From sequence record NC_014662.1: 64,000 bases of DNA; one strand, 5' to 3'. Of this stretch, positions 2,945 to 61,478 are shown one piece after another. Position 1 is the stretch's first letter; each line of letters starts with the position of its first letter. The notes under the pieces were generated by a model. That model ran no database searches. It was not told the origin of the DNA and saw nothing but the letters and a program-made list of their open reading frames with translations. The translations under genes and the position numbers were made by a program. This DNA comes from Enterobacter phage CC31.

Positions 2945-4819
2945 TTATTCGCTCATCCACACTTTACGTGGAGCAGCGTCATCACCCATAACCATTTCGA
3001 AGAGTTCTTTCCAGTTTTCAGGAAGAGAAACTACATCATAATGAGGTTCTTGGATTACTCGCTCATATTCATCTTCTTCCAAAGAACCCAGTCCTTTGAT
3101 GTAACGAAGTTTCCAACCAGCAAGTTCATCTTTTTCCGCTTCATATTCAGCGGCGGTGTAATACCACTTCTGTTTGTCTCCTTTACTCATAATGATAACA
3201 GGAGTTTTGACGAAGCGAATTCGGCCTTCTTCAAACAGACGAGGCCAATTACTGAAGAATGCCAGAAGACTTGGATAGATTGAACCTGTTCCGTCAACAT
3301 CCGCATCTGTCATGATAGCGATGTTTTTGTAGTTCAGATTTTCATAATCTTCACCAATAGTCAATCCAGTGATTGCGCAGATGTCGAAGACCTCTTTGTT
3401 CTTCATTGCTTCTGCTGCGGTCATTCCCCACGTATTCAGGAACTTACCGCGAAGTGGATAACCACCATGAAGTTTACGGTCACGAGTAGTCAGAAGATAA
3501 CCAATTGCAGAATCACCTTCTGTTAAGAACAGAGTGGTTTCTTCTTTATCATTACCATAAAGTTCTGGCTTAATATGTTTAGCAACCTTAGCTTTTGAAG
3601 CAGCTTTTGCAGCTTTAGTTTCAGCAGCTTTTTCTGCCGCCAATTTACGAGCCAGCATAGCTTCAATAATTGGCATATGAATTGCTTCGGACTTCATAAC
3701 TTGTTGAGCAAGTTTTTTGTAGTCCAAGTTCAAATGAGCTTTAACTTCACCCCATGGAGATGTCAGACGTTCTTTAGTCTGAGAATCAAATCGCATGTTG
3801 CTCATATCACGAACGAACATCACGAAAGTAAAACACTCTTTGATACGAGCCTTGTTTACTTCCAGTTTGTACTTACGTTTGAGCATTGGGATGAGTTCAT
3901 TTGACAATTCGTCAACAACCAAATCCACATGAGAACCACCCTTAGAAGTATGGATGTTGTTCACATAAGTCAGTTGGCGGAAACCATCATCTGAACGACC
4001 AATTGCAATTGAACAATTATCTTCATCAGCTACAATAGCTTCTTCATCAAATTGCTTAGCGAATTTCTTGAATCCGCCATTGACTTTTTTGCCTTGGAAT
4101 TTGAATTCAATATCCGGGAATACTACCGCCAGAGTTTGAAGACGGTCCAAAACAATTGATTCATCTACTTCTGTAAGTCCTGAACTTTCAAAGTGACTGA
4201 AGTCAGGAATGAACGATACTCGAGTTCCGGTCTTGGTTTGAATGAACTCTTTTTCCTTTGCTGGCTTACTATCCCAAGAGATATTCTCAGCCCCATTAGA
4301 GCATCGGACGATAATTTCATTCTGGCCGTCACAAGTAGCTCCTGCAAAAGTCACAGAGAAAATATTAGTCAATGCAGAACCAACACCGTTCATACCACCA
4401 GTTTTACGTTCAGCATCATCACCAAAGTTACCACCAGCGCGTGGACGAGTCCAAGCAGCTACTGGTCCAGGAATTTCATCTCCTTCAGGAGTAACTACTG
4501 GAGCTTGTGGAAGACCACGACCATTATCTGTTACGATAACTTTATTGCCTTTAAGCTCAACAGAAATTTTATTTGCAAACTTGAAGTTGGTACGAATTGC
4601 TTCATCGACTGAGTTATCAATGATTTCGTCAATCAGCTTGATTACACCCGGAACGTAAGTTACACTTTGGAATTTACCAAACAGAAAACGTTCGTGAGCT
4701 TCCATAGCTGAAGAGCCGATGTACATACCAGAGCGCTTAATGATATGCTCTCGGTCTGACAGAATTTTAATTTCGTTCTTAATCATCATTTGTCCTCGTT
4801 TAGGTGAACATTCTATCAA
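2945..4819 (-). CDS. 39: DNA topoisomerase II large subunit (GyrB-like ATPase; gp39/gp60-type fused form)
   Basis: 624 aa; N-terminus MIKNEIKILSD...RSGMYIGS and motifs DNGRGLP, GGMNGVGS, EGDSAIGY, IMTDADVDG match recalled T4 gp39 and continue through the gp60-equivalent C-terminus without interruption. Confidence 0.92.
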   Translation of the reverse strand: MIECSPKRGQMMIKNEIKILSDREHIIKRSGMYIGSSAMEAHERFLFGKFQSVTYVPGVIKLIDEIIDNSVDEAIRTNFKFANKISVELKGNKVIVTDNGRGLPQAPVVTPEGDEIPGPVAAWTRPRAGGNFGDDAERKTGGMNGVGSALTNIFSVTFAGATCDGQNEIIVRCSNGAENISWDSKPAKEKEFIQTKTGTRVSFIPDFSHFESSGLTEVDESIVLDRLQTLAVVFPDIEFKFQGKKVNGGFKKFAKQFDEEAIVADEDNCSIAIGRSDDGFRQLTYVNNIHTSKGGSHVDLVVDELSNELIPMLKRKYKLEVNKARIKECFTFVMFVRDMSNMRFDSQTKERLTSPWGEVKAHLNLDYKKLAQQVMKSEAIHMPIIEAMLARKLAAEKAAETKAAKAASKAKVAKHIKPELYGNDKEETTLFLTEGDSAIGYLLTTRDRKLHGGYPLRGKFLNTWGMTAAEAMKNKEVFDICAITGLTIGEDYENLNYKNIAIMTDADVDGTGSIYPSLLAFFSNWPRLFEEGRIRFVKTPVIIMSKGDKQKWYYTAAEYEAEKDELAGWKLRYIKGLGSLEEDEYERVIQEPHYDVVSLPENWKELFEMVMGDDAAPRKVWMSE

Positions 4820-4834
4820 CAGATTCTTAAAGCA

Positions 4835-5221
4835 TTATATCTGCGACAATTTTTCTTCAAGTTCAGCTTTATACTGCAGTAAATGGGTTTTAGCTTCTTC
4901 ACCGAAAATAGGATTATAACTTGGATTGTATGCAGCCCAGCGGGCAGAACTGTAAACCTTTTTATAGAACTTATGGCGCACTTCACGAGAATTCGTATAT
5001 GCGTATATATCAATACCATAATATGCTTCGCACTCATAGCTTCCATCTTCATTTTGATGAACATGCTCATGACGAATCTCATAATACTTTTCAAGCCAAA
5101 TATAGCTTCCATCGACTATACGGGTAGGCCATAAAGCAAACTTCCAGCGCCCAAGTGCACTGTTCACAATTTTGAGTTGCTTGAGCAAATTTTTATGCTC
5201 TACTGTTAATCCAAATCTCAT
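4835..5221 (-). CDS. hypothetical protein
   Basis: ATG at 5219-5221 with GGAGA RBS; the longer track ORF (to 5302) reads through the terminator hairpin and is rejected. Confidence 0.55.
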   Translation of the reverse strand: MRFGLTVEHKNLLKQLKIVNSALGRWKFALWPTRIVDGSYIWLEKYYEIRHEHVHQNEDGSYECEAYYGIDIYAYTNSREVRHKFYKKVYSSARWAAYNPSYNPIFGEEAKTHLLQYKAELEEKLSQI

Positions 5222-5246
5222 AATGTTCTCCTCTTTTGGTAGAGCT

Positions 5247-5276
5247 ATTTTATCATACTTTGTAGAGAAAGTAAAC
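5247..5276 (-). promoter_or_regulatory. putative T4-type early promoter (GTTTAC -35, A/T-rich -10)
   Basis: minus strand GTTTAC (plus 5271-5276) about 18 nt upstream of TAAAAT, then RBS and ATG at 5221. Confidence 0.35.
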
Positions 5277-5280
5277 AACA

Positions 5281-5298
5281 AAGGGCCCGAAGGCCCTT
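5281..5298 (-). terminator. intrinsic terminator hairpin AAGGGCC-UUCG-GGCCCUU
   Basis: perfect 7-bp stem plus tetraloop directly after stop of the 5302..6837 gene; same 18-mer recurs at 34240 and nearly at 28043. Confidence 0.7.
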
Positions 5299-5301
5299 TC
5301 A

Positions 5302-6837
5302 TTATACTTTACCTTGCAGAACGTTAGTGAACTGCGAACCACGCCAGAAGTAACCTTGGTCATTCGGATGGACGTTATCATTTGAGGTGTACAGATTTGC
5401 GTTCTCTGCAGTAACCCAACCTTTAACATCTACGAACTCTAAGTTCAACTCAGTAGTAAGTTCAATCAGTGCATCACGAACTGCCGCGATTTGGTCAGTC
5501 ATTCCAAGAGGAGTTGCCGGTCCAAACACGATAATTTTAGCTGCAGGTTGATATTGCTTAATCAGAGCAATTGACTCTCTGAAGTTAGTTTTAAGCAAAT
5601 CAATTCTACCAGCCGGAGCATCGTTATAGCCTAAAGCTAAAGTGATGATATCCGGAGTGAAACTCAGAGTTGCAAGCTTAGCCGTGATACGAGCTTGAGG
5701 CTGAGTTGAGCTTGTTGAAGTCCAACCAGAACCACCGATGCCATCAGCTAATCCGACTAAACCAAGCTTATCACAATAGAAACGGAAATCGTTGAACGAT
5801 GCTTGAGTTGCCATTGTACCGAAGGTGTAAGAGTCACCAAGCTGCCAAATCATCTTAGCTGGACGAGTAATTGCAGTGATAGTTTTTCCAGTGTCTACAT
5901 AAATTCCGCCAAAGGCAGTATTCACGCCAACAAGAGAATATTCACGCATTTGCTCAACACCGTTCCAATCTATGCTATAGATGTAAACTGCACCAGACGA
6001 ATCAGTAGTGACTGAAGTTGCAGAAATACGTTGTCCATCTACATAAAGGTCATACTTGGAGTTATTCCCGGCGAGTTTGAAATCAATTTTGCTTGAATCA
6101 GTTTTGAAATTAACTCGACATTGAGTTCCGTTGCCAGTACCATTTCCTCTGAAACCAGAAACAGCGTCCTTGATGTCAGAACCCCAATAAGTGATTTTAG
6201 CATCAGTACGAGCAATTGTTACGCCAGCATAAATTGTTGAAGCTACACCAGCGTTGGTCGTTACAGTGAATTTAGCGCCTGTACCAGTACCACCTGTTGC
6301 TGAAATTTCACCAGTAGGAGCAGTTGCATATACACCAGGTTTACGAACTTGAGTAGTCGTAATTTCGCCATTACTACCAACAGCCGTTACACGGATTTGT
6401 CCATTAACATCACCAGTGGCTCCAGGAATATCCAAAATATCACCGAATGTATATCCAGTGCCACCTGAAACTAAAGTAGCATTTCCAGAAATACCTACGC
6501 CCTTAATAAGCTTTTGCGTTGGTGGATTTGACATTACTGCAACTGGTTGAAGCATTGGCCCTAATGGTGGTTGAGGGTCTGGACCATCTACTGTATATTC
6601 GCTTAAAGTATATTGATATCCATTTCTAGACTCAATGAAATTAACTTCACCGTAGTCTACATAAGCTTGTTTGAGAGTATCAATTTGAAGTGCATATTGA
6701 GGGTCAGCGTATTCACGCCAGTCTTTACCTTCTTCCTTGGCTTTAATAAGGATGTTGTGAATCCACCAAGGAAGGTAAAGGAAGCTTGTGTTACGCCACG
6801 GAATAGGATGTACCGTGGTCCAAATATCTGTAGCCAT
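5302..6837 (-). CDS. SGNH/GDSL-family hydrolase (esterase) with Gly/Thr-rich beta-type N-terminal domain
   Basis: 511 aa; C-terminal GDSYTFG (catalytic Ser block), LALGYNDA, DNVHPNDQGY (Asp-x-x-His block); N-terminal half rich in G/T/S repeats; strong AAGGAGA RBS before ATG at 6837. Confidence 0.7.
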   Translation of the reverse strand: MATDIWTTVHPIPWRNTSFLYLPWWIHNILIKAKEEGKDWREYADPQYALQIDTLKQAYVDYGEVNFIESRNGYQYTLSEYTVDGPDPQPPLGPMLQPVAVMSNPPTQKLIKGVGISGNATLVSGGTGYTFGDILDIPGATGDVNGQIRVTAVGSNGEITTTQVRKPGVYATAPTGEISATGGTGTGAKFTVTTNAGVASTIYAGVTIARTDAKITYWGSDIKDAVSGFRGNGTGNGTQCRVNFKTDSSKIDFKLAGNNSKYDLYVDGQRISATSVTTDSSGAVYIYSIDWNGVEQMREYSLVGVNTAFGGIYVDTGKTITAITRPAKMIWQLGDSYTFGTMATQASFNDFRFYCDKLGLVGLADGIGGSGWTSTSSTQPQARITAKLATLSFTPDIITLALGYNDAPAGRIDLLKTNFRESIALIKQYQPAAKIIVFGPATPLGMTDQIAAVRDALIELTTELNLEFVDVKGWVTAENANLYTSNDNVHPNDQGYFWRGSQFTNVLQGKV

Positions 6838-6869
6838 AATGTTCTCCTTATAGTCTACAGATATTTATT

Positions 6870-7130
6870 TTATTCAAACCTGATAGTTGAATTTTTGAAC
6901 AGAATACCAGAACAAACAGCGCCTTCTACTTTAACACCAGTAGGGCCTACTGCTTTAAATCCAGTAGATTGAGTATCTTTTTCTGAGCAGGAGAACCAAG
7001 AATAACCAGTGATTTCAATATTGCTGAAACCATTTGCTTCAAGAATACGAGTAGCATTATCTGCGTCAGTGCATCCAGCTACGCCAAAAGCAAATAAAGC
7101 GGCTACAATAGCACGATTGATATATTTCAT
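6870..7130 (-). CDS. putative lipoprotein
   Basis: 86 aa; N-terminal signal with lipobox FGVAGC. Confidence 0.55.
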   Translation of the reverse strand: MKYINRAIVAALFAFGVAGCTDADNATRILEANGFSNIEITGYSWFSCSEKDTQSTGFKAVGPTGVKVEGAVCSGILFKNSTIRFE

Positions 7131-7222
7131 TTCTTAGTCACCTTAATAATTTTGCCGCTATGAAGTTTAATAACCCGGCTTTCGCCGGATTTCATAAAAC
7201 GAATACGTGGACGAGTACCCAT
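7127..7222 (-). CDS. small basic hypothetical protein (31 aa)
   Basis: ATG overlaps stop of upstream Zn-ribbon gene (TAATG); translation MGTRPRIRFMKSGESRVIKLHSGKIIKVTKK. Confidence 0.3.
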   Translation of the reverse strand: MGTRPRIRFMKSGESRVIKLHSGKIIKVTKK

Positions 7223-7398
7223 TAATAATCACCACTCTTAAGTCCGTCATAATGAACCGCCGGAGCAGAAACTACTCGTTTCATTTCGCCTTCACAGTTC
7301 AAGAATTTGCACGGCTGTGGATTATCTCGCTCAGAAATTTTAACATTCTTTTCTGATTTTTCACCGCAAGCTTCACACTGATAATCATATAATGGCAT
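7222..7398 (-). CDS. FmdB-family-like zinc-ribbon protein (58 aa)
   Basis: hand translation MPLYDYQCEACGE...CKFLNCEGEMKRVVSAP; two CxxC pairs; GGAGG RBS 6 nt upstream of ATG at 7396-7398. Confidence 0.5.
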   Translation of the reverse strand: MPLYDYQCEACGEKSEKNVKISERDNPQPCKFLNCEGEMKRVVSAPAVHYDGLKSGDY

Positions 7399-7720
7399 TG
7401 ACAGCCTCCGACCACTTTTTAGTTTTAAGACGAAGTTGACGATTTAACTCTTCAGTAACTGCAAGAGCAACTTCTTCATGAGAAGCTCCGTCCATTTTAT
7501 CACGCATATGCAGCCAAAGAGCATCGATTACGCAATTAATTACATCTGCGCATTCGCCAGCGAAGATTTCTTTCTGACGATGAGGACGATTAATCCAATC
7601 GCACATTTCACCAGTTTCAGAAGAAAGCTGCAACATAACAGATGTGATGTTGCGCCATGGTTTATTTTCAGTGTATCTAGCAGATACTTGGAGTACTGGA
7701 GTGATATCTAATACTTGCAT
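7385..7720 (-). CDS. hypothetical protein (weak MazG-like resemblance)
   Basis: start placed at ATG 7718-7720 overlapping upstream stop (TAATG); motif EIFAGECADVINCVIDAL loosely resembles MazG/HisE helix. Confidence 0.5.
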   Translation of the reverse strand: MQVLDITPVLQVSARYTENKPWRNITSVMLQLSSETGEMCDWINRPHRQKEIFAGECADVINCVIDALWLHMRDKMDGASHEEVALAVTEELNRQLRLKTKKWSEAVNAII

Positions 7721-8409
7721 TATTTCTTCCATTTCATAGTTTGAAGAATTTCAATAGCTTTCTTGCGTTCAGCTTCGCTTTCGATTTTGAACACCATCAC
7801 GCCTTCAACTTCTGCATTCCACTCTTCTGGTTCTTCTGGTTCTTTGATAGCAGCAATCTGCTCATCCAAAGATTCCATACTGCAAATTGGACTATACTCT
7901 TCATAGTCATCTTCTGAAATTACTTTAAAGTAACGATATTCACCAGGAGTGAAAGTGATTTTCATCTTAGCTGTGTAGCCATCGTTGTGAATGTATTCAA
8001 TTTCTAAAGTGCGTTCACAGTCGTTCATCATCTTAGAAACTTTGAACACTTTAGTTCCAACTTCTCTGACAAAGCGAGAGTTAATTGAAGACGCTCCGAC
8101 AGCACTGAGATTAATGCATTTGTACACTACTCCTGCACGCCAGCTTCCGCCACCAGTTACATCTTCGAAGTATTCACGTTCATCTGCAGTGATATAGAAT
8201 CCGTCCCAAGATGTTTCACCAGTTCCTTCAAAACGGACCTTAACTGCTGAATCACCGTTACAATCTTCTTGTACTTCAAGAACGGTGAATTCAGGACCCT
8301 TAGATTTGATATCATCTAAAAGTCTTTCGTTATGAAAACTCTGAGATAAGAACCACTGCTCGTTTTCTTCCGGCAGACGATAAGTACGACCTTTAATGAA
8401 ATTAGGCAT
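7720..8409 (-). CDS. hypothetical acidic protein
   Basis: 229 aa from ATG 8407-8409, 3 nt after stop of upstream gene; longer track ORF rejected as 5-prime extension. Confidence 0.55.
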   Translation of the reverse strand: MPNFIKGRTYRLPEENEQWFLSQSFHNERLLDDIKSKGPEFTVLEVQEDCNGDSAVKVRFEGTGETSWDGFYITADEREYFEDVTGGGSWRAGVVYKCINLSAVGASSINSRFVREVGTKVFKVSKMMNDCERTLEIEYIHNDGYTAKMKITFTPGEYRYFKVISEDDYEEYSPICSMESLDEQIAAIKEPEEPEEWNAEVEGVMVFKIESEAERKKAIEILQTMKWKK

Positions 8410-8626
8410 TATAAGTTTCCTTCCAGTATTCTGTGCCATCATCAGAGATTTGACGGAACATACCATAGATTGGCAGAGTGTCACCAACATTTTCATAAAC
8501 ATAAGCGATTTGAGTATGCTCAAGGTGACCCGCAACATCTTTCTGAACTACTACTAAGTCCGGGTTGTACAGAGTATCTTCAAATTCGTCACGAGTGATA
8601 CCGGTAATGATAGGTTGGTTTTTCAT
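8402..8626 (-). CDS. hypothetical protein
   Basis: 74-aa ORF directly downstream of early promoter. Confidence 0.5.
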   Translation of the reverse strand: MKNQPIITGITRDEFEDTLYNPDLVVVQKDVAGHLEHTQIAYVYENVGDTLPIYGMFRQISDDGTEYWKETYNA

Positions 8627-8656
8627 GATTTTTTCCTCATTAGTTTTGATAGGGCT

Positions 8657-8686
8657 ATAGTATCATAGCCCTCAAAGAAAGTAAAC
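8657..8686 (-). promoter_or_regulatory. T4-type early promoter with embedded 8-bp inverted repeat
   Basis: minus strand GTTTAC (plus 8681-8686), about 18-nt spacer, TACTAT (plus 8657-8662); palindrome AGGGCTAT/ATAGCCCT at 8651..8672 spans the -10. Confidence 0.5.
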
Positions 8687-8692
8687 GGTTAA

Positions 8693-9130
8693 TTACGCTT
8701 TGCCTGGGCGATTGCCATAGCTCATCACGTAGTTAATGTTATCGGTAGGAACTACAGCGTACTCACCCATGAACACAACGTTGGCTACGATTTGGTCAGT
8801 ATCTTCGTCACGATAAACCAGAGATACCCAAGCACCCATGCCGTCGATGGTTTTACCACTGGAATTTTCAAGTGCGTTATGCAAATCTACAGAAACTGGT
8901 TTGCGTTCGAACTTAGATTTTGCTGTAACAAGCGCAGTGTCAATAGGGTCATTGACTTCAACGAAATGATACTTAGCAGAAATCTTAAAACCACTTGAAC
9001 CAAGAGTAGGACCTGCAACATTGATGATGTACTGACCGCGTGCTGCATTGTCAGAGATAATCCAACCGACCAGACCTTTGTTCTGACCACCAATAACTTT
9101 TACACTTTTACCAATCATTTTACTAGCCAT
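8693..9130 (-). CDS. hypothetical protein
   Basis: 145-aa ORF on minus strand. Confidence 0.55.
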   Translation of the reverse strand: MASKMIGKSVKVIGGQNKGLVGWIISDNAARGQYIINVAGPTLGSSGFKISAKYHFVEVNDPIDTALVTAKSKFERKPVSVDLHNALENSSGKTIDGMGAWVSLVYRDEDTDQIVANVVFMGEYAVVPTDNINYVMSYGNRPGKA

Positions 9131-9185
9131 CTTATCACCTTATCATTTAAGAGAATTCAATTCTAACACATTAAGTTAAAGCAGA

Positions 9186-9875
9186 TTAACCGCGGCCTTT
9201 TGGTAAAGACAGAGGGTCAATTTCATCACCTTCAGGTGCATCTTCTAAACCAAGGGCGTATCGTTGAGCGTATTTTAACATCAAAATATCTTTAGCACAA
9301 TCGTGAATAGAGTCATGAGCAATGAAACCATCCAGGACGCCCTTACGAAGAGGAGTTGTCGTTAAGTCACGAGTTAAAAGAAGAGCTTCAATCGCTGTAC
9401 GAACATCTCGTTGATTCCAGAACTTACAAGGCTCTAAGCCGAAAGTATCGATATCTTTTTCAGCAATACCTTTACGAGCTTCACCTTCACGGAGAATATC
9501 CACAAGAATTGGGAAGTCGAAAGATTGACCACGACACCAACCGAAAGATTTCCACGGGTCAACTCCATTATCTTTCAGGAATTGAAGCAGCTTGTACAGA
9601 CCTTCAACATGGTCAATATCTTCATCAGATGGAAGCAGGTTTTTACGAGCTTCTTCAGATTGAGATTTCCACCACTTCATAGTAGAAGCACCGAATAGAC
9701 GAACACCTTGTTGTGCTTTAAGGTTGAACTTCAGTTTCATACCGCGCTGAACGAGTTCATCAAATGTTTCAACTACTTCCGGGTTCGGGTCAAATACAAC
9801 AGCAGCCACATCAATAACAGCAGAGCGAGAGACGTTACCGAACGTCTCCCAGTCAATAATAAAGTCTTTAATCAT
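9186..9875 (-). CDS. dexA: exonuclease A
   Basis: 229 aa; N-terminus MIKDFIIDWETFG and position upstream of dda match T4 DexA. Confidence 0.85.
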   Translation of the reverse strand: MIKDFIIDWETFGNVSRSAVIDVAAVVFDPNPEVVETFDELVQRGMKLKFNLKAQQGVRLFGASTMKWWKSQSEEARKNLLPSDEDIDHVEGLYKLLQFLKDNGVDPWKSFGWCRGQSFDFPILVDILREGEARKGIAEKDIDTFGLEPCKFWNQRDVRTAIEALLLTRDLTTTPLRKGVLDGFIAHDSIHDCAKDILMLKYAQRYALGLEDAPEGDEIDPLSLPKGRG

Positions 9876-12526: not shown

Positions 12527-12681
12527 ATGATATCCTTATATGCTTTTGCGAAAGTAGCGGTATAATGGTTTCAAGGAGTATTCTATAACATCTGATTCCG
12601 GTTGTAAACGGTCAGAATGAAATAAGTTCTACATCATAGATTGTATGCATTCCACCTGGATTGAAATCCACATCCTCAATG

Positions 12682-13290
12682 CTAGTTACTCGGAACTTCG
12701 TTCCGATTGGCAATCATCCATTCTTGTTCATCCTGGACCATGTTGATTTTATTTTTACGGTCAATTTTTGCTAAAGGGTCGTAAGGTGCTGCGCTGAACT
12801 CACAATTTGGAGCTGCGGCTAAAATCTTTAGCATATCTTCCTGGTAGTTATAAGCTATTGTAGGGTTAGACCAGCGAATGATGGTCTTGGTCCCATAGCA
12901 TCCAAAGCTAGCAAAACTTCTTGCTGTGTTAAAGTCGGTTGAAAAGCTTACAACTCTTTCAGATGTAAAAACCTCTCCAACTTCGACGTTTTGAAGAACA
13001 TTGAGCATTCGTCTGTTGACTCCACGATAAAGCATTTCAGGAGTAACGGTTGTCATACGACGGCGGATAACTTTATCCAACCCACGATTAACCCAGTCTT
13101 CCACTTTATCGTTCAAACACTTCCATAAAACTGCTTGTTCTTCATCAGTGAACATCGAGTTAACTTCAGACTCGAGCATTTTACGCTCGACTTCCTCTGA
13201 GCCTTCCCAATACTCATAGATTCCACCAGAAGGAACTGGTATTGATGGTGTGATTTCTACTTCAATGACAGGACTTTGATAGAATGCCAT
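12682..13290 (-). CDS. modA: ModA/ModB-like ADP-ribosyltransferase
   Basis: 202 aa from ATG 13288-13290 (GGAGG RBS); R-S-E ART signature: LYRGV (Arg), SFSTD (STS), DEQEW (Q/E-x-E); size matches T4 ModA. Confidence 0.7.
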   Translation of the reverse strand: MAFYQSPVIEVEITPSIPVPSGGIYEYWEGSEEVERKMLESEVNSMFTDEEQAVLWKCLNDKVEDWVNRGLDKVIRRRMTTVTPEMLYRGVNRRMLNVLQNVEVGEVFTSERVVSFSTDFNTARSFASFGCYGTKTIIRWSNPTIAYNYQEDMLKILAAAPNCEFSAAPYDPLAKIDRKNKINMVQDEQEWMIANRNEVPSN

Positions 13291-13318
13291 GATAACCTCC
13301 GTTTGTTTTACGGAAGCT

Positions 13319-13348
13319 ATCATAACACAGAAGAGAAGGGATGTAAAC
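13319..13348 (-). promoter_or_regulatory. T4-type early promoter
   Basis: minus GTTTAC (plus 13343-13348) and TATGAT (plus 13319-13324), about 18-nt spacer, upstream of modA start. Confidence 0.45.
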
Positions 13349-18623: not shown

Positions 18624-18632
18624 TTTGAAACC

Positions 18633-18914
18633 TTACGCATGCTTGACGTTAGTTAAACGAATGAGACGATAGTCATCGTTTTCTAAAGTTGTTACACCAA
18701 TTGTTACACCACCGTGTTTATCGTTAAATGGAGGAATAACTACAATAAGCGTTTTTCCAAGCTCAAGAGCTTCTCGGACAGGTCCTGTGCACTCTAGCTT
18801 AGCATCATCGGACTTAACCACTAAGGTTCCCGGAAGGCAATCCTTGATTTCAGCCTGTGGTTTAGTGTTATCGTAAGTGTTACGAACGACAAGAAGCATT
18901 TGATTCAATTTCAT
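18633..18914 (-). CDS. hypothetical protein at the dmd (61.5) position, not Dmd-like
   Basis: 93-aa ORF immediately upstream of gene 41 with its own early promoter; no similarity to recalled 60-aa T4 Dmd. Confidence 0.55.
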   Translation of the reverse strand: MKLNQMLLVVRNTYDNTKPQAEIKDCLPGTLVVKSDDAKLECTGPVREALELGKTLIVVIPPFNDKHGGVTIGVTTLENDDYRLIRLTNVKHA

Positions 18915-18943
18915 TTTATTTTCCTCATTTTGTTGATAGGGCT

Positions 18944-18973
18944 ACTATAACATAGCCCTACCAGAATGTAAAC
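18944..18973 (-). promoter_or_regulatory. T4-type early promoter with embedded inverted repeat
   Basis: minus GTTTAC (plus 18968-18973), TATAGT (plus 18944-18949); palindrome TAGGGCTA/TAGCCCTA at 18937..18960. Confidence 0.5.
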
Positions 18974-18975
18974 GG

Positions 18976-20418
18976 TTAGAATTTGAGGTCTTCAGCCAAT
19001 GCATCGAGTTTAGCTCTTGCACTAGCGTTTTGTTCAACACGAGTCATTCGGTTACCTTCTGCAACTCGTTGCTGAGCACCGGAAGTCTCTTTGACTGAAG
19101 TCGGTTGTTCACCATGTTCTTGAGCGATTTCAACCCAACGCTGATTGCCTTTACTTACACCAATCAAGAACTTATTGTTGATGTTCTTATCGCCGTAACG
19201 AGACTTAATCTGCTTAATGAGCTGTTGTCCTTGTTGAGCAAGTTCCTCAGTTTCAATTACCGCTAGCATAAAGTCTGCTGTTGCTGGTAGACCTGCGGAT
19301 TCTGCAACATCACCCATAGAAATATCAGAAGCATCCCAACCTGAACGAGTTGTCTGAGCTGCTGTCCACAGAACAGTTTCAGATTCAACAGCCAATGCAC
19401 GAAGTTCTTCTGCAATAGCTTTAACTAATGTGTAGCTGTTTTCGGTGTAAACTTTAATACGACAAGAAGCGCAGATACCCAGATAGTCAATAATGATGAC
19501 ATCAGGAACGAAGTTCTTCTTAAGTTTAAGTTCATTCAGTAATGCACGGAACGTATTTGCATGAGCTCCACCAGTTGGATATTGCTTGATAATCAGACGA
19601 CCAAGAGTATTCTTTGAGCGCCATTTTTCCATCTTGCCTTTGTATTCAGCATATGAAACGTGACCATCGTCAATATCATCCAGTGATACATCAAGTAAGT
19701 TAGCATCGATACGTTTTGCACAAACTTCTTCTGCCATTTCCATGGAGATATACAGAACGTTCTTACCCATCTGAAGATAGTCAGCAGCAAGAGAACACAG
19801 ACCTAATGACTTACCGACGTTTACACCTGCGAGTAATACGTTCAGAGTGCCGGTCTCTGCACCGCCTTTTGTGATTCTGTTCAGAATATTGAGTTTGAAT
19901 GCAACCTTACGAGCTTTGTTTTGATAAGCTAACCAACGAGCCTCATGGTCTTCCATCCAATCATGACCAATGTAACTATCAAATGAAATTGACAGAGCAG
20001 CTCGCATGATGTCCGGAATTGCACCTACATCAGGAAGTTTTTTGTTTCGCTTTTCTGGTGGAAGTTGGGCGTTAGTCTGAATTTCAATAATCTTTGATGT
20101 TGCATTGTACATCGCAGATTCTTGAACAAAGCGTTCAGTTTCAGCTACGAGCCAGTTTAAATCTTCTGGAGTATCTTGAAGCTTATTAATTAACTCACTT
20201 GCGCCCTGTACTTCAGTTTCAACTAATTGACTATTATCCAAAGCCACTGCCAATGCAGTTTTACTTGGAACAGCTTGATATTTTAATACGTGCTGATGAA
20301 TCAGTTTGAAAACATTTTTGGCTGGGCCATGTTCAAAATACTCATCTCCCATATAAGGCCAAACCTTCGAGAAGAAGGCTTGGTTATACAGCAAATGAGA
20401 TAAGATTGTTTCTACCAC
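18976..20418 (-). CDS. 41: replicative DNA helicase (DnaB-like)
   Basis: 480 aa; near-identity to recalled T4 gp41 over long stretches (LLAGVNVGKSLGLCSLAADYLQ, IDANLLDVSLDDIDDGH). Confidence 0.93.
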   Translation of the reverse strand: MVETILSHLLYNQAFFSKVWPYMGDEYFEHGPAKNVFKLIHQHVLKYQAVPSKTALAVALDNSQLVETEVQGASELINKLQDTPEDLNWLVAETERFVQESAMYNATSKIIEIQTNAQLPPEKRNKKLPDVGAIPDIMRAALSISFDSYIGHDWMEDHEARWLAYQNKARKVAFKLNILNRITKGGAETGTLNVLLAGVNVGKSLGLCSLAADYLQMGKNVLYISMEMAEEVCAKRIDANLLDVSLDDIDDGHVSYAEYKGKMEKWRSKNTLGRLIIKQYPTGGAHANTFRALLNELKLKKNFVPDVIIIDYLGICASCRIKVYTENSYTLVKAIAEELRALAVESETVLWTAAQTTRSGWDASDISMGDVAESAGLPATADFMLAVIETEELAQQGQQLIKQIKSRYGDKNINNKFLIGVSKGNQRWVEIAQEHGEQPTSVKETSGAQQRVAEGNRMTRVEQNASARAKLDALAEDLKF

Positions 20419-20428
20419 GGGAACCTCA

Positions 20429-20818
20429 TTAAAATAGTTTGAAACGTTTTTTCTTTCTCATAATATCGGCATGAGCCTGTTGAATTTGTATTTTAATACA
20501 TTTTTCAACATGTGGTGCAAGGTCGGCTTTTCGTGATTCGTCCAACGTAGAGAACTCTAGTGACACCTGGCCGCTTTCATCCAAGTGTAATGAGGTAACA
20601 TATACGATATGTTCTTCGCCGTCCTCTAGTGTTATCAGGATTTCCTGGACGACATTCTCCATAGCCTTTTGGATTATCTCAAGACTCTTTTTGAACATCC
20701 GTTCGGTTCTTTCAAATTCCCCCTCCGAAGAGGGGGTTTCATCTTGAACTTCAACATCAGTCAAATCGAGGTCTAAGTCCTCGAAATTATTCTTCATCTT
20801 CGTAATTTTCCAGTTCAT
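20429..20818 (-). CDS. hypothetical protein at gene 40 position
   Basis: 129-aa ORF between uvsX and 41; start uncertain (ATG 20818 or 20797). Confidence 0.5.
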   Translation of the reverse strand: MNWKITKMKNNFEDLDLDLTDVEVQDETPSSEGEFERTERMFKKSLEIIQKAMENVVQEILITLEDGEEHIVYVTSLHLDESGQVSLEFSTLDESRKADLAPHVEKCIKIQIQQAHADIMRKKKRFKLF

Positions 20819-23193: not shown

Positions 23194-24020
23194 AAAGTGG
23201 GCTCAATCTCACTGAATTTGTTGAAAGCGTCTGACTTTTGTTTCTTGGCTACGCACATACGAAGTACTTTCAGAGGTTCGTCAGTGCCAAACATAGTTTT
23301 GGTTGGGTCACCTTCTGATTTCCAACGAGCTTGAGTTGGGAAGTCAGCATGAATTTTTTCTAATGCGCGGTTTTGTTTAGCCGCATTACGCATAGATGAT
23401 ACGCCGCCAGGAGCTTGTCCTTTGCCAGATTTGACGAGATATTTGAAAATCGCCAGATGAGGATAACCCATATTAATGAGTTTAAGGAACGCGTATGTAT
23501 CTTCGGACAGGTCTACTATACCATATCCAATGTCATCAGCAGAAAGTTTGCTTAAATCGTAAAAAGTGTTAGTGAATCCGTAAGAGTTCTCACGGAAATG
23601 ACCCCACTTAGAATCAATCTTGAAGATAGGCAAACGAGCATGACCATGATAAAATCCACAGTCCATAGCTGCTTCAACATACTGAGTGAGTTTATTGAAT
23701 TCGTCCCATGTCATTCCAACATCGTGAAGAATACGACGGTCGTCTTTAGCACGAATCTCAGTAGTATGAATTGTAGTGTCATCGTCCAGCATCCAGATTC
23801 GTTGACCTTGATACATTTCAGTAATAAGACGACGAGTACCAGCAATACCATTTACATCATCTGGAATAGTTACGATTTTAGCCAACGCACCATAATGCAT
23901 CTCATATTCTTCTTTCTGAGACTCACGTACTACTAAATGAGGTACATAACCAGTAGGGAACATGTCCAGGGCAGTTACTGCCCCAGCACGATTGTAACTC
24001 GGAATTACAAATTGAATCAT
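23190..24020 (-). CDS. GT-A-fold glycosyltransferase-like protein (candidate DNA sugar transferase)
   Basis: about 276 aa; N-terminal QFVIPSYNR nucleotide-sugar-binding-like strand and LDDD (DxD) about 70 aa later; ATGA-coupled to gene 42 upstream and beta-gt downstream. Confidence 0.65.
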   Translation of the reverse strand: MIQFVIPSYNRAGAVTALDMFPTGYVPHLVVRESQKEEYEMHYGALAKIVTIPDDVNGIAGTRRLITEMYQGQRIWMLDDDTTIHTTEIRAKDDRRILHDVGMTWDEFNKLTQYVEAAMDCGFYHGHARLPIFKIDSKWGHFRENSYGFTNTFYDLSKLSADDIGYGIVDLSEDTYAFLKLINMGYPHLAIFKYLVKSGKGQAPGGVSSMRNAAKQNRALEKIHADFPTQARWKSEGDPTKTMFGTDEPLKVLRMCVAKKQKSDAFNKFSEIEPTL

Positions 24021-25254: not shown

Positions 25255-27963
25255 TTAGAAATCAAACATATTGTCTAAAGATGCTTTTTCTTCATAGTCA
25301 AGACCTGAAGCTTCTGACATACCAGCAAGCGGCTTAACGAAAGACTTTTGGAACAGAGTCGTGTAGTCTAACCAAGCCAGAACATCTTGACGAATTTCCT
25401 GTGGAAGTTCTGTACCTGATGGCCAAGCGATACATTTGTCACCGAATGGGTTACCCTGACGAAGTGGAAGAACCATCACCTTGTTACCCTCGAGAATCGG
25501 AGTGACAGAGAATCCGGCTGTTGCACGATTATAAGTCAGTGCACCACGAACGTGATATGGACATTTAAGACCAGGGAAACCATTATCGTCATATTTACCG
25601 ATGTCATTACAAGTTTTAACTTCTGCAATAACTTTGTAGTCCAGCTGACGATATTCTTTTTCAAACTGCTTGTAGTATTCTTGCAGCGATTCTTCACCTT
25701 CTTGAACCATGCGGCGAATACTTTCTTCCAATGCTTTCTGAACCGCTTTCGGAGTAGAAGACTGCTGAGTCTCCATGCCCATAATCTTCAGGTGTGGTTC
25801 AGCATAACGCTTATCTTCCATATCGTAAACGTTCAGTGCATAACGTTTCTTAGCTTTCCAGAATCCACCACAACCTTTTGAACCAAGCGGCGGACATGAA
25901 ATAGCTTCTCGGTCCATATGCATGAGGTGTTCACGGTTATTGAAGTACTCGCACAGTTCACGATAAGCGGTATCAATCATCGGTTCCATTTTCTTCTTAC
26001 CGAATTGGTTCATAAATTCAACCACTTCGTCAGTTGTTTTGAAACGTTCAAGACCTACTTTTTCAATAACTTTGTCAACTGAAACATAGATTGAGTCAGT
26101 ATCACCTGCTGCGATGAAATCAAATCCTTCGGTTCCACACACTTTATTCAGATACTCGTTAACTTTACGAGCAATCCAACGAATACCTACTTGACCAAAC
26201 AGTGTAATCGCAGATGCGTTACGAAGGTCATAATAACGGAAGTAAATGTTACCCAAAGCACCATAAAGACTGTTGATAAGAATCTTACGGTTCAGCTGGT
26301 TTGTGTTTGCCAGAATAGCAGCAGATTCACAACGAGCCAGCATAGTTTCCAGCACCAACTTAGTGTACTTATTTAGAGACGCTTTCTGTTCGTCAGTGTA
26401 CTGAGTGTAACGAGTTTCATCTGGAGTATCAATGTCACCGAATACGCCAGCAGCTAAAACTTTCTTAATTTCTTCTGCGTTACGTTCTTCTGCGAACATC
26501 TTTTTCTTCCAATCTTTACGCTGGAAGAACACCTTAGCGATTTCTACCGGGATGACACCCTCAATATCTTTACGATACATCCAACCGTTCGGTGAACATG
26601 AATATTCGTCACTTGGTCGTGGAGCAGTCTTATTGATATAAGCTTCGATATCATAAAGTTTGAATTGACCAACAATTGTTTCCGGAGAAATATTCACCTG
26701 ACGAATGATACTCGGATACAGAGATGTTAAGTCGAAACTCATGATGTACTTACGAGCACATGCTAATGGTTCAAATACATATGCACCTGGATAAGTCTGC
26801 TTGATGTGACGCTTACCTTGAGGAATTACTTTGTTCTGTTCTTTCAAGGAGTTAAAGATGATTGCGTCCCAAGTTTTAATTGGAGACATTACACCACCGA
26901 ACGGCATCTTAGCATAATAAGACATACTCAGCGCCAGGTCAATGAATCCACGAACTCGGTCAATACCACCCACAGACTCAACGTCCATGATGTTATAAGA
27001 AATATAACGTTGGTGATTTGTTTCACGAAGTTTGTTAATTGGACCGTCATATGGTAACTTACCACGTTTCGTCTCATACAGAGCGATGTAGTCCAAGTTA
27101 TAAGTTGGTTGGTTCGTGAATGAATACTTCTTGTACAAATCCATGTAATCCAGAATTGTTACACCATCAATACTGAATACTTCTTTTTCACCGTACATGT
27201 TCTGAATGAGTTTTGAATTCACTCGGTTAATTGGAGAGAATCGTTTCATTGTACGTTCACCCAACACATTCTTAACACGGTTCATGATGTACGGAATATC
27301 AAAGCCTTCAATGTTCCAGCCTGTGAAAATTGCTGGACGCTTTTGTTCCCAGAGATTGATGTATTCCAGAAGAAGTTCTTTCTCTGAATAGAACGGCATG
27401 TACACTACGCGGTCAAGAATATGCTGCGGAACTTCATCACCGCCTTCCTTATCGCTTCGTGCTGCTAGCTTCACGTCCCATTCTGAAACTGAGCCATACA
27501 GAGAATCCAGTAAGTCGAAAACGTAGAACTTATCATCGATTGAATCATAATGAGTGATTGCATCGATTTCATACATCGCTTTCATTGGGTCTGGGAATTT
27601 ATCACCTGTAACTTCGATGTCACAGTTAGCAACACGAATGAATTTCTTGTCATAAACAATCTCAGAACCATAAGTGTCGGAGATATAAGCAAGTTTGAAG
27701 TCATCCATACCCATGGCTTCAAGACCGATATCTTCCATACGACGAATCCAATCACGAGCATCTTTCATGGTCGGGAAAGTATTCTTGACACATGGCTTCC
27801 CATAGATATCAAAGAACTTTGTCTTCACACCTTGTTGAGCATGAGAAAACATAGTTGGAGAATATTCAATTCGTCGCTGACGTTCTACACCATTAGAGTC
27901 AATATAACGTTCAATGATGTCATTACCTGCGGTTTCAATAGAGATATAAAATTCTTGTGCCAT
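25255..27963 (-). CDS. 43: DNA polymerase (family B, with 3-5 exonuclease)
   Basis: 902 aa; long stretches match recalled T4 gp43 (FDIEV exo I, YGDTDS pol motif C, SLYPSII motif A). Confidence 0.95.
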   Translation of the reverse strand: MAQEFYISIETAGNDIIERYIDSNGVERQRRIEYSPTMFSHAQQGVKTKFFDIYGKPCVKNTFPTMKDARDWIRRMEDIGLEAMGMDDFKLAYISDTYGSEIVYDKKFIRVANCDIEVTGDKFPDPMKAMYEIDAITHYDSIDDKFYVFDLLDSLYGSVSEWDVKLAARSDKEGGDEVPQHILDRVVYMPFYSEKELLLEYINLWEQKRPAIFTGWNIEGFDIPYIMNRVKNVLGERTMKRFSPINRVNSKLIQNMYGEKEVFSIDGVTILDYMDLYKKYSFTNQPTYNLDYIALYETKRGKLPYDGPINKLRETNHQRYISYNIMDVESVGGIDRVRGFIDLALSMSYYAKMPFGGVMSPIKTWDAIIFNSLKEQNKVIPQGKRHIKQTYPGAYVFEPLACARKYIMSFDLTSLYPSIIRQVNISPETIVGQFKLYDIEAYINKTAPRPSDEYSCSPNGWMYRKDIEGVIPVEIAKVFFQRKDWKKKMFAEERNAEEIKKVLAAGVFGDIDTPDETRYTQYTDEQKASLNKYTKLVLETMLARCESAAILANTNQLNRKILINSLYGALGNIYFRYYDLRNASAITLFGQVGIRWIARKVNEYLNKVCGTEGFDFIAAGDTDSIYVSVDKVIEKVGLERFKTTDEVVEFMNQFGKKKMEPMIDTAYRELCEYFNNREHLMHMDREAISCPPLGSKGCGGFWKAKKRYALNVYDMEDKRYAEPHLKIMGMETQQSSTPKAVQKALEESIRRMVQEGEESLQEYYKQFEKEYRQLDYKVIAEVKTCNDIGKYDDNGFPGLKCPYHVRGALTYNRATAGFSVTPILEGNKVMVLPLRQGNPFGDKCIAWPSGTELPQEIRQDVLAWLDYTTLFQKSFVKPLAGMSEASGLDYEEKASLDNMFDF

Positions 27964-37871: not shown

Positions 37872-37898
37872 GTTACTCTCCTTGGTTGGTGTAAGAGT

Positions 37899-37928
37899 AT
37901 AGTAACACCTTCCGCAACGGATGTAAAC
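37899..37928 (-). promoter_or_regulatory. T4-type early promoter
   Basis: minus GTTTAC (plus 37923-37928), 18-nt spacer, TACTAT (plus 37899-37904). Confidence 0.45.
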
Positions 37929-47419: not shown

Positions 47420-47449
47420 ATCATATACTAGCTTTTCAAGGATGTAAAC
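47420..47449 (-). promoter_or_regulatory. T4-type early promoter
   Basis: minus GTTTAC (plus 47444-47449), 18-nt spacer, TATGAT (plus 47420-47425). Confidence 0.45.
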
Positions 47450-50598: not shown

Positions 50599-50669
50599 TT
50601 TTGTTCTCCGAGTTTCTATTTGTTTGGTATGAGGTAATAGTATCATCATCTCATACCGTTGTAAACAAT

Positions 50670-51291: not shown

Positions 51292-51319
51292 TTTGTTCTC
51301 CTTTGGTTTTGATAGTGCT

Positions 51320-51350
51320 ATAATACCATATGCTATAGCGCTTGTAAACA
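51320..51350 (-). promoter_or_regulatory. T4-type early promoter
   Basis: minus GTTTACA (plus 51344-51350), about 18-nt spacer, TATTAT (plus 51320-51325). Confidence 0.4.
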
Positions 51351-51682: not shown

Positions 51683-51712
51683 ATAGTATCAAAACTTAAA
51701 GCATCTGTAAAC
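51683..51712 (-). promoter_or_regulatory. T4-type early promoter
   Basis: minus GTTTAC (plus 51707-51712), 18-nt spacer, TACTAT (plus 51683-51688). Confidence 0.45.
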
Positions 51713-55964: not shown

Positions 55965-56098
55965 TACAAACTCCTTTGAACGAGGTCCATTATACCATTA
56001 ACCAAGTTGTATGTAAACAACGGATTGTGGTATTGAACAAACAGATAAAGCAGTACAAATACCGTTCTCATTACCAGCCTGCCGTATCAAATTCACCA

Positions 56099-56558: not shown

Positions 56559-56588
56559 ATAGTATCACCTTTTGAAGAGGATGTAAAC
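56559..56588 (-). promoter_or_regulatory. T4-type early promoter
   Basis: minus GTTTAC (plus 56583-56588), 18-nt spacer, TACTAT (plus 56559-56564). Confidence 0.45.
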
Positions 56589-60957: not shown

Positions 60958-61428
60958 TTATAACTTGATAATCTTTGTGCTGATTTTACCTTTCAAGCGT
61001 TTATCATTTACGAATGCCATGCGACATTGCATGGAGTGACCGCGGAACGGGTGTTCTGGGTTTGGTAGAGAGACAGTCATTCCAAGCCATAGAGTACCAT
61101 CAGTGATTTCCAAACGCTGAGGCCTGTATTCTACTTCTGGGTCAATTTCCGATGGGTCAATAGGAAGCATCGGCATTTCTAAGAACTCGTGAATTTCTGT
61201 TACGTGATTGTGTACTTTGTGGAACAGAGCGAACACATACTCTTCATCAATCTCCCGTTGGATAGCACGGTCCAAGAGATGATTAGAATATTTAATAAAG
61301 AAAGCTGGGATACCAGCAGATGCGCAAGCACTACGTATAGAATCGTTTACACTCTTGAACTCAGTCTCAAAGCGACGACGTAGCTTGTTTCGGCGGATGA
61401 ATACTTCTGGATTAGTTGTCATTTTCAA
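60958..61428 (-). CDS. regB: RegB site-specific endoribonuclease
   Basis: 156 aa; EVFIRRNKLRR, KYSxHLLDRAIQREIDE, EYRPxRLEITDG-LWLG, LQCRMA match recalled T4 RegB. Confidence 0.88.
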   Translation of the reverse strand: MKMTTNPEVFIRRNKLRRRFETEFKSVNDSIRSACASAGIPAFFIKYSNHLLDRAIQREIDEEYVFALFHKVHNHVTEIHEFLEMPMLPIDPSEIDPEVEYRPQRLEITDGTLWLGMTVSLPNPEHPFRGHSMQCRMAFVNDKRLKGKISTKIIKL

Positions 61429-61448
61429 TCTCCTTTGTTGATAGGGCT

Positions 61449-61478
61449 ATAGTATCATAGCCCTTGGAGAAAGTAAAC
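61449..61478 (-). promoter_or_regulatory. T4-type early promoter with embedded 8-bp inverted repeat
   Basis: minus GTTTAC (plus 61473-61478), TACTAT (plus 61449-61454); palindrome at 61443..61464 identical to the 8651..8672 copy. Confidence 0.5.

Follow-up and report, generated by a model that had tools for sequence, protein, structure and literature searches.

Stem-loops embedded over the -10 of early promoters in Enterobacter phage CC31: probable members of the PeSL class in Karamvirus

The sequence under study, hereafter the window, is a stretch of 64,000 nucleotides from Enterobacter phage CC31 (NC_014662.1). Its gene content is T4-like, and a 4-kb stretch around the promoters discussed below is 98% identical to Enterobacter phage vB_ECC_CW742 (CW742) and 94% identical to phage PG7, both of which belong to the genus Karamvirus of the Tevenvirinae. 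According to the annotation of these two relatives, the minus strand carries a T4 early region with rIIA, topoisomerase, goF, cef, motB, dexA, dda, modB, gene 61, gene 41, gene 43, and regB. Three minus-strand promoters in this region bear an inverted repeat across the -10. The first (8651..8686) is located upstream of cef (ORF 8402-8626) and goF, the second follows gene 41 and precedes a 93-aa ORF (18633-18914) at the dmd position, and the third is located upstream of regB, in agreement with the initial annotation, which had them drive an operon at 8402, the dmd-position gene, and regB. A scan of the window against Rfam returned no family at the gathering score.

The three promoters are part of a larger family. 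The pattern GTTTAC-N18-TAnnnT, equivalent to TTTACA with a 17-nt spacer and, in most cases, a TGn extended -10, was found 14 times on the minus strand of the window and once on the plus strand, with 0.2 matches expected from dinucleotide shuffles. All nine minus-strand sites that had initially been proposed as one promoter family fit this pattern, and the proposal is well supported by these counts. Four extra intergenic family sites are found at 5276, 12609, 50666, and 56018, together with a single N17 spacer variant at 2497. A generic sigma-70 scan of the window gave no enrichment over shuffles and did not single out the family; only GTTTAC-N18-TAnnnT was informative. The family sites are on the early-transcribed strand with a Shine-Dalgarno sequence (SD) and ATG downstream and, with the exception of the match at 25830, they are intergenic. 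That match, GTTTAC-N18-TATGCT at 25801-25830 (minus strand), is inside the coding sequence of gene 43 (DNA polymerase) and is probably due to chance.

In the cef-goF promoter (8651..8686, minus strand) the -35 GTTTAC occupies 8686-8681, the left arm AGGGCTAT 8672-8665, the -10 TACTAT 8662-8657, and the right arm ATAGCCCT 8658-8651, with the ATG at 8626 and a putative +1 at the A at 8650. The regB promoter (61429..61478, minus strand) is built in the same way, with the -35 at 61478-61473, an inner left arm AGGGCTAT at 61464-61457, the -10 TACTAT at 61454-61449, the right arm ATAGCCCT at 61450-61443, a putative +1 at 61442, and the ATG at 61422. The +1 was taken as the A of the conserved ATCAA, assuming the usual start 7 nt past the -10. 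In the promoter after gene 41 (18935..18973, minus strand) the -35 occupies 18973-18968 and the -10 TATAGT 18949-18944; the left arm GGTAGGGCTA spans 18962-18953 and the right arm TAGCCCTATC 18944-18935, with a putative +1 at 18937. The extended -10 is TGA at the cef and regB promoters and TGT at the dmd-position promoter. The AT content between -60 and -36 is 48%, 56%, and 64% at the three promoters compared with a window mean of 60%, and any UP-like A/T tract appears weak.

The initial annotation had described a perfect 8-bp palindrome within an extended block common to all three promoters. Both parts of this description hold for cef and regB: the AGGGCTAT/ATAGCCCT palindrome is perfect at cef (8672-8651) and at regB, and the two promoters share an exact 27-nt block, TTGATAGGGCTATAGTATCATAGCCCT, at 8646-8672 and 61438-61464, which was never found in shuffles. 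They do not extend to the gene 41-downstream copy, where the perfect arms are only 7 bp (AGGGCTA/TAGCCCT), with 10 to 12 pairs if G-U is counted, and where the 27-nt block is absent (18938-18959, beyond the limit of 3 mismatches). The stem-loops of all three cassettes are predicted to be stable, with z of about -3.9 to -5.9 relative to dinucleotide shuffles. The predicted RNA fold is -13.1 kcal/mol (z -4.25) at the cef promoter and -16.8 kcal/mol (z -3.86) at the regB promoter, where the fold contains both the inner stem and a predicted 5-bp outer helix pairing UCUCC (61470-61466) with the SD GGAGA (61433-61429). At the gene 41-downstream promoter the sense strand folds at -19.2 kcal/mol vs -13.2 kcal/mol for the antisense strand.

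The two arms differ in their relation to the promoter. The right arm ATAGCCCT is composed of the final 2 nt of the -10 and the whole 6-nt discriminator AGCCCT, and it is largely promoter sequence, AGCCCT differing little from the AGCyCT consensus of the family. Otherwise free spacer sequence, at -22 to -15, provides the left arm AGGGCTAT, which is complementary to the right arm. The hairpin lies 13 to 15 nt past the stop codon of the upstream gene, with its end at about -1, so that the promoter's own transcripts would include none of it or only 3 nt; both arms would be absent from the promoter's own transcript and present in read-through RNA from the upstream gene. Terminator scans identified no terminator upstream of the three palindrome promoters, where the upstream stop codon adjoins the -35. 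The hairpins themselves are followed by no U tract (the 3' flank is AUCAAMA) and are absent from the terminator scans, and hence they are not canonical intrinsic terminators.

Most of the nine sites had been thought to follow an intrinsic terminator directly, and this turned out to be an overestimate. Canonical terminators are found directly upstream of 37928, 51712, and 56588 among the listed sites and of the unlisted site 5276, and the fraction of listed sites with a terminator upstream is 4/9 even when 47449, with a terminator 82 nt away, is counted. The promoter at 37899..37928 (minus strand, as are all promoters in this paragraph) follows a terminator at 37966-37948 and has a weaker dyad; the one at 51683..51712 follows a terminator at 51761-51744 and has no significant internal hairpin; the one at 56559..56588 follows a canonical terminator at 56633-56609 and shows a weak dyad, AAGGT/ACCTT, as well as a spacer CCUCUU complementary to its own SD; and the hairpin is absent at 47420..47449. 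The promoter at 5247..5276 has the family pattern and a terminator at 5299-5280 directly upstream, and those at 12580..12609 (-10 TAGAAT) and 55989..56018 (-10 TATAAT) have the family pattern without a hairpin. The promoter of an ADP-ribosyltransferase (modB-like) gene at 13319..13348 has no dyad over the -10; instead, a long helix is predicted between the -10/discriminator and the SD/AUG. An internal hairpin and an upstream terminator as mutually exclusive features (0/9 vs 4/20) did not reach significance (Fisher p ~0.2).

The dyad is also not confined to the three promoters, contrary to what had first been assumed. An unrelated 8-bp dyad covers the -10 of the promoter at 50626..50666 (minus strand), with GGTATGAG at 50657-50650 and CTCATACC at 50633-50626 (RNA fold -14.1 kcal/mol, z -6.29). 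The promoter at 51314..51349 (minus strand) carries the dyad AGCGCTATA/TATAGCACT across the -10, with one C-A mismatch in the window and perfect pairing in CW742; like the dyads at 56588 and 37928, it is weaker.

Palindromes of this kind could arise without any function, if recombination had spread copies of a single promoter cassette through the genome. The palindrome would then be a by-product of the promoter consensus, in which TATGA, TAcTAT, and AGCyCT show partial self-complementarity. The consensus by itself does supply three of the eight pairs (TAT/ATA), and 27 to 45 nt are common to the copies, as would be the case for paralogues. The pairing was examined further in the CW742 genome, which was assembled complete from five stretches and contains 29 promoters of the GTTTAC-N18-TAnnnT type. 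AGGGCTA arms are found at five of them, namely those of cef, the gene 41-downstream ORF, regB, an internal-protein gene, and an ORF at 23.7 kb, with loops of 6, 8, and 13 nt; the left arm floats in the spacer, and the 13-nt loop belongs to the ORF at 23.7 kb, where this arm is 5 nt further upstream. Other CW742 promoters have unrelated arms (GATGAGGTA/TACCTCATC, AGTGCTATA/TATAGCACT, and TGGTATGAG/CTCATACCA), and yet another has CCACAT/ATGTGG placed between the -35 and -10. Local hairpins with z <= -2.4 are present in ~10 of the 29 promoters with at least five unrelated arm sequences, the remainder being at background.

When spacers were swapped between promoters of the window, the folding energy was -3.05 kcal/mol for a spacer with its own -10/discriminator vs -1.56 kcal/mol with those of other promoters (permutation p=0.0006). 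The same test on the 29 CW742 promoters gave p<2e-5 overall, p=0.0007 (DNA parameters) and 0.009 (RNA) with one AGGGCTA copy kept, and p=0.011 (DNA parameters) and 0.045 (RNA) with all AGGGCTA copies removed. Over all promoters, the sense strand has a modest folding advantage over the antisense strand (z -1.44 vs -1.01, p=0.013). An origin without function is quite unlikely in view of this cognate-specific complementarity, which remains without the AGGGCTA family, of the z of about -4 to -6 vs dinucleotide shuffles, and of the independent arms and compensatory changes seen at orthologous sites. These sequence comparisons show selection on the complementarity of the arms, that is, on pairing rather than on sequence.

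Orthologous promoters were retrieved from related phages with cef (2 loci) and the 93-aa ORF (1 locus) as queries, the gp41 C-terminus being a better query. At the regB promoter, Karamvirus genomes retain AGGGCTAT. One lineage has changed GGGCTAT/ATAGCCC to GGGCCAT/ATGGCCC, a compensatory T:A to C:G replacement; another has unrelated arms, GTGTAGgAGTA/TACTtCTACAC; and in two more the spacer pairs directly with the SD region over 9 to 12 bp (CTCCTGTAG/CTACAGGAG and CTCCTCTTTATG/CATAAAGAGGAG). Downstream of gene 41 the comparison reaches T4 itself, in which the dmd promoter has a 10-bp dyad, GACAAGACTA/TAGTCTTGTC, around the TATAGT -10 (z -5.5, T4 locus 20575-20612), in exact register with GGTAGGGCTA/TAGCCCTATC of the window. 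Further relatives have GATAGGGCTA/TAGCCCTATC, GGTAGGGCTA/TAGCCCTACC, AACGAGACTA/TAGTCTTGTT, and GTGTAGGAGC/GCTCCTACAC at this promoter. We also noticed CCACA/TGTGG between the -35 and -10 of the T4 promoter at 2458 (locus 2420-2458); neither this repeat nor the dmd-promoter dyad is mentioned in the T4 reviews searched.

The six gene 41-downstream sequences in the same register, including T4, are paired in 72/72 cells, and 5/12 pairs have changed on both sides. Their covariation score is 0.55 vs 0.35 in shuffles and was reached by 0/500 of them; it is supportive rather than conclusive, since each register is represented by only two or three independent lineages. With slid partners, 26 to 68% of the cells of the same sequences are paired. 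One pair passes through A-U, G-U, and G-C, and all of the G-U cells are on the sense strand (11/11). The compensatory changes and the sense-strand G-U intermediates point to selection on a single sense strand. Whether the palindrome recurs at orthologous promoters, a question raised by the initial annotation, has a divided answer: it is missing at the gene 41-downstream promoter of PG7 and Pet-CM3-4 and present at the cef and regB promoters of both. Outside Karamvirus, the distant T4-like Pseudomonas phage PspYZU05, whose RegB shows only 47% identity, carries 10-bp arms, AGGGCTATAG/CTATAGCCCT, in at least four copies of the promoter (3300-9753). The left arm adjoins the -35; the loop in this phage is 8 nt, with a shifted left arm. 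A scan of viral contigs for AGGGCTAT-N4-16-ATAGCCCT gave, among the matches listed, mostly unrelated hairpins or terminators, with only Karamvirus contigs and PspYZU05 being relevant.

Dyad symmetry overlapping the -10 is the classic arrangement of a repressor operator, and the window dyads are likewise centred on the -10. On this ground a dimeric regulator shared by the three promoters had been suggested; AGGGCTAT/ATAGCCCT would then be the symmetric target of a dimeric protein, from the phage or the host, whose binding occludes the -10 and places cef, the dmd-position gene, and regB under common control. Three window and five CW742 promoters have identical half-sites, all centred on the -10, the same arms are found in the distant phage PspYZU05, and the shut-off of T4 early promoters is still unexplained (PMC2988021, PMC3014915). 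However, the half-site spacing is not fixed: loops of 6, 8, and 13 nt are found, and in PspYZU05 the loop is 8 nt and the left arm is displaced. This variation comes from the left arm, which alone changes position. The arms at other promoters are unrelated, and orthologues have replaced the arm sequence and preserved the pairing. G-U pairs (G-T in DNA) would amount to mismatched half-sites, and they occur on the sense strand only. The right arm is in large part promoter consensus, and the orthologous promoter of PG7 lacks the palindrome. To judge from these comparisons, the dyad at the -10 most probably does not serve as an operator, and co-regulation through a dimeric protein appears very unlikely; there is therefore no need to look for a repressor common to cef, regB, and the dmd-position gene.

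The homology between the window and PG7 at the gene 41 junction runs through GTTTAC(A) and ends in the -35 hexamer at 18967, and past this break PG7 has a different spacer, -10, discriminator, and ORF. Three states of the gene 41-sp junction (window 18626-18967; PG7 locus 18657-19012) are found among Karamvirus genomes: the AGGGCTA promoter with the 93-aa ORF, the AGGGCTA promoter fused straight to sp without this ORF (in a third Karamvirus contig), and a different promoter with a different ORF. CW742 has a 310-nt ORF-bearing insertion directly past its counterpart of promoter 37928 (window 37874-37882). Of all homology breakpoints relative to PG7 and CW742, 2/~34 are at promoters with ~0.6 expected, a weak genome-wide association that is suggestive only. 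A replacement was also observed at window 7833-8407, where the N-terminal part of goF, together with a small ORF, differs between window/CW742 and PG7 (573 vs 560 nt), with the break at the cef stop codon. The near-identity of the copies over 27 to 45 nt may be both a product of, and a substrate for, homologous recombination that swaps promoter-plus-ORF cassettes. The early suggestion that the promoters act as recombination hot spots is in line with the published PeSL (promoter-early stem-loop) model (PMC2839356, PMC4122927) and with the PG7 break at the -35 and the sp fusion, and in one case, the gene 41 junction, the aligned genomes show a cassette swap of the kind of shuffling known for PeSLs.

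Alternatively, the stem might act in the DNA itself: as a cruciform or single-strand hairpin it could be a preferred target of a nuclease or a recombinase, or it could modulate the melting of the promoter. The arms contain GGGC/GCCC, and GGGC/GCCC inverted repeats are located at T4 deletion endpoints (Mosig et al. 1998, as reported by Arbiol et al., PMC2839356). Arbiol et al. also raise the possibility of such a role and localised one RB49 crossover within the loop (PMC2839356). In addition, the gene 41 cassette junction is at the -35 beside the stem, and the swap tests are significant with DNA parameters. We regard a role at the DNA level as unlikely. Arms of 7 to 10 bp with loops of up to 16 nt are poorly suited to cruciform extrusion, the strand-asymmetric G-T pairs favour one sense strand, the junction seen in the -35 hexamer is outside the stem, and patches under 50 bp suffice for homologous recombination in T4 (PMC2839356).

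What we propose instead is that the duplex DNA would serve as the promoter, and that the hairpin would form only in the sense-strand RNA of polymerases arriving from the upstream gene, which can reach it because no terminator is located between that gene and the promoter. The hairpin would then be a mark of read-through RNA. Most likely its effect is to attenuate read-through or to set the 3' boundary of the read-through RNA, insulating neighbouring early units from each other, by analogy with one RB49 reporter experiment on a different stem. At regB, the outer helix between spacer and SD is predicted to mask the read-through RNA partly for translation, with a P(SD unpaired) of 0.50 in read-through RNA vs 0.95 in the promoter's own transcript.

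The regB case raises the question of whether translation is what the stems control in general. The 3' arm would then cover the SD, and translation or exposure to RegB would be confined to mRNA started at the promoter, following a paradigm documented in T4 for e, soc, 49, and I-TevI (PMC3014915). The outer UCUCC/GGAGA helix at the regB copy would fit, as would the spacer:SD pairing of 9 to 12 bp in regB orthologues of other lineages and a mean P(SD unpaired) of 0.34 to 0.41 in read-through RNA vs 0.65 in the own transcript. At the cef and dmd-position copies, however, the SD is unmasked (0.46 and 0.94), and the inner AGGGCTAT stem, whose end precedes +1, does not reach the SD. The cognate-specific test is not significant: genome-wide, P(SD unpaired) is 0.338 for cognate vs 0.362 for non-cognate combinations (p=0.23), and a count of strongly masked SD sites gives p=0.19. 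Relative to shuffled spacers there is a weak effect at the level of the consensus (p=0.02). A translational gate as the explanation of the stems is highly improbable, and SD masking as their general function was rejected for lack of cognate specificity and retained for regB only.

A wider extension of the read-through mark, possible but doubtful on present comparisons, would make promoter-embedded helices a general "transcript-origin tag" in T4-like early regions: read-through RNA would carry the hairpin, plus an anti-SD:SD helix at regB and some other genes, and RNA from the embedded promoter would lack both. If this were true, translation, RegB cleavage, and decay of one cistron would depend on where its transcript started, the logic of e/soc/49/I-TevI would be extended from late to early promoters, and the PeSL stem would be a post-transcriptional element and not a terminator.

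Two further observations concern SD pairing. In the modB-like promoter region (13289-13348, minus strand) a 19-bp helix of -26 kcal/mol is predicted between the -10, discriminator, and first transcribed bases and the SD and AUG, by which the translation of a potentially toxic gene could be strongly masked. An anti-SD-like pyrimidine tract (atCCUC, atCUCC) is found right after the -35 in many early promoters, including 56588, 61478, and 5276 in the window and 15096, 44144, 6986, and 125833 in CW742, and is complementary to the downstream SD, sometimes over 9 to 13 bp, with no significant cognate specificity across the genome.

Among known systems, the early promoters (Pe) of T4 provide the promoter architecture itself: the GTTTAC -35, the 17-nt spacing, TGn, the TAnnnT -10, and a conserved start region are all shared. 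The Pe consensus description in the T4 early promoter review mentions no dyad or stem (PMC2988021). The T4 dmd promoter nevertheless shares the dyad in the same register; at the three palindrome promoters, the UP-like A/T tract appears weak by comparison. In T4, e, soc, 49, and I-TevI have hairpins that sequester the ribosome binding site and contain an internal late promoter (PMC3014915). As in our promoters, the promoter is within the helix and only read-through RNA can fold, and a 3' arm is predicted to cover the SD at the regB copy and in regB orthologues; unlike in our promoters, those promoters are late and masking is the entire function, whereas the inner stem here ends upstream of +1. 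The resemblance to Rho-independent terminators is limited to a GC-containing stem-loop soon after a stop codon: there is no U tract here, the terminator scan is silent, and true terminators precede four other promoters.

The closest known elements are PeSLs, described in RB49/phi1, T4/PST, and KVP40/nt-1 as intergenic cassettes in which an upstream stop codon and an AT-rich tract are followed by a sigma-70 early promoter, a stem-loop, an SD, and an ATG (Arbiol et al. 2010, PMC2839356; Comeau et al. 2014, PMC4122927). Five subclasses are distinguished by the position of the stem, including between the -35 and -10 and overlapping the -10; PeSLs have promoter activity, attenuator activity is known for one stem (RB49 PeSL211/210), and copies recombine to give mini-circles (RB49, phi1) and ORF shuffling (PMC2839356, PMC4122927). 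The RB49 intergenic sequences 186/185, 199/198, and 193/192 were compared directly with our elements. PeSL 186/185 (GGGTGTAT atcata ATACACCC) and PeSL 199/198 (GGGGATAT agcata ATATCCCC) have 8-bp arms and a 6-nt loop over the -10, as in the window elements. In PeSL211/210 (locus 23221-23309), reported to attenuate like rrnB T1, the stem is followed by UAUACUACAC without a U tract, so that its mode of action would not be canonical intrinsic termination; stems without a U tract are a caveat for the "terminator" label of the PeSL model.

The window cassettes resemble PeSLs in having an upstream stop codon, an early promoter, a stable embedded stem-loop, and an SD/ATG, in a stem that overlaps the -10 (a described subclass position), in a G-rich left arm and a C-rich right arm, in multiple copies per genome (five in CW742), and in the association of copies with ORF swaps among close relatives. 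They differ in the -35 (GTTTAC of the T4 type here, TTGACA in PeSLs), in the arms (AGGGCTAT here, a G-run and C-run in PeSLs), in lacking the AT-rich upstream tract at the three AGGGCTAT copies, and in that only ~1/3 of the early promoters here have a stem. On balance, the sites are probably T4-type sigma-70 early promoters of Karamvirus, with the three palindrome copies assigned to the PeSL class and its subclass with the stem-loop over the -10. PeSLs as a kind and their cassette shuffling are already known, and what is new is the occurrence in Karamvirus, of which no description was found in the literature searched. Also new are the compensatory changes and sense-strand G-U pairs, the stem having been inferred from single genomes in the earlier PeSL papers. 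For annotation, such cassettes explain why near-identical phages can have differing ORFs right after these promoters. With the present comparison the PeSL architecture would reach Karamvirus, at least one Pseudomonas T4-like phage, and the dmd promoter of T4 itself.
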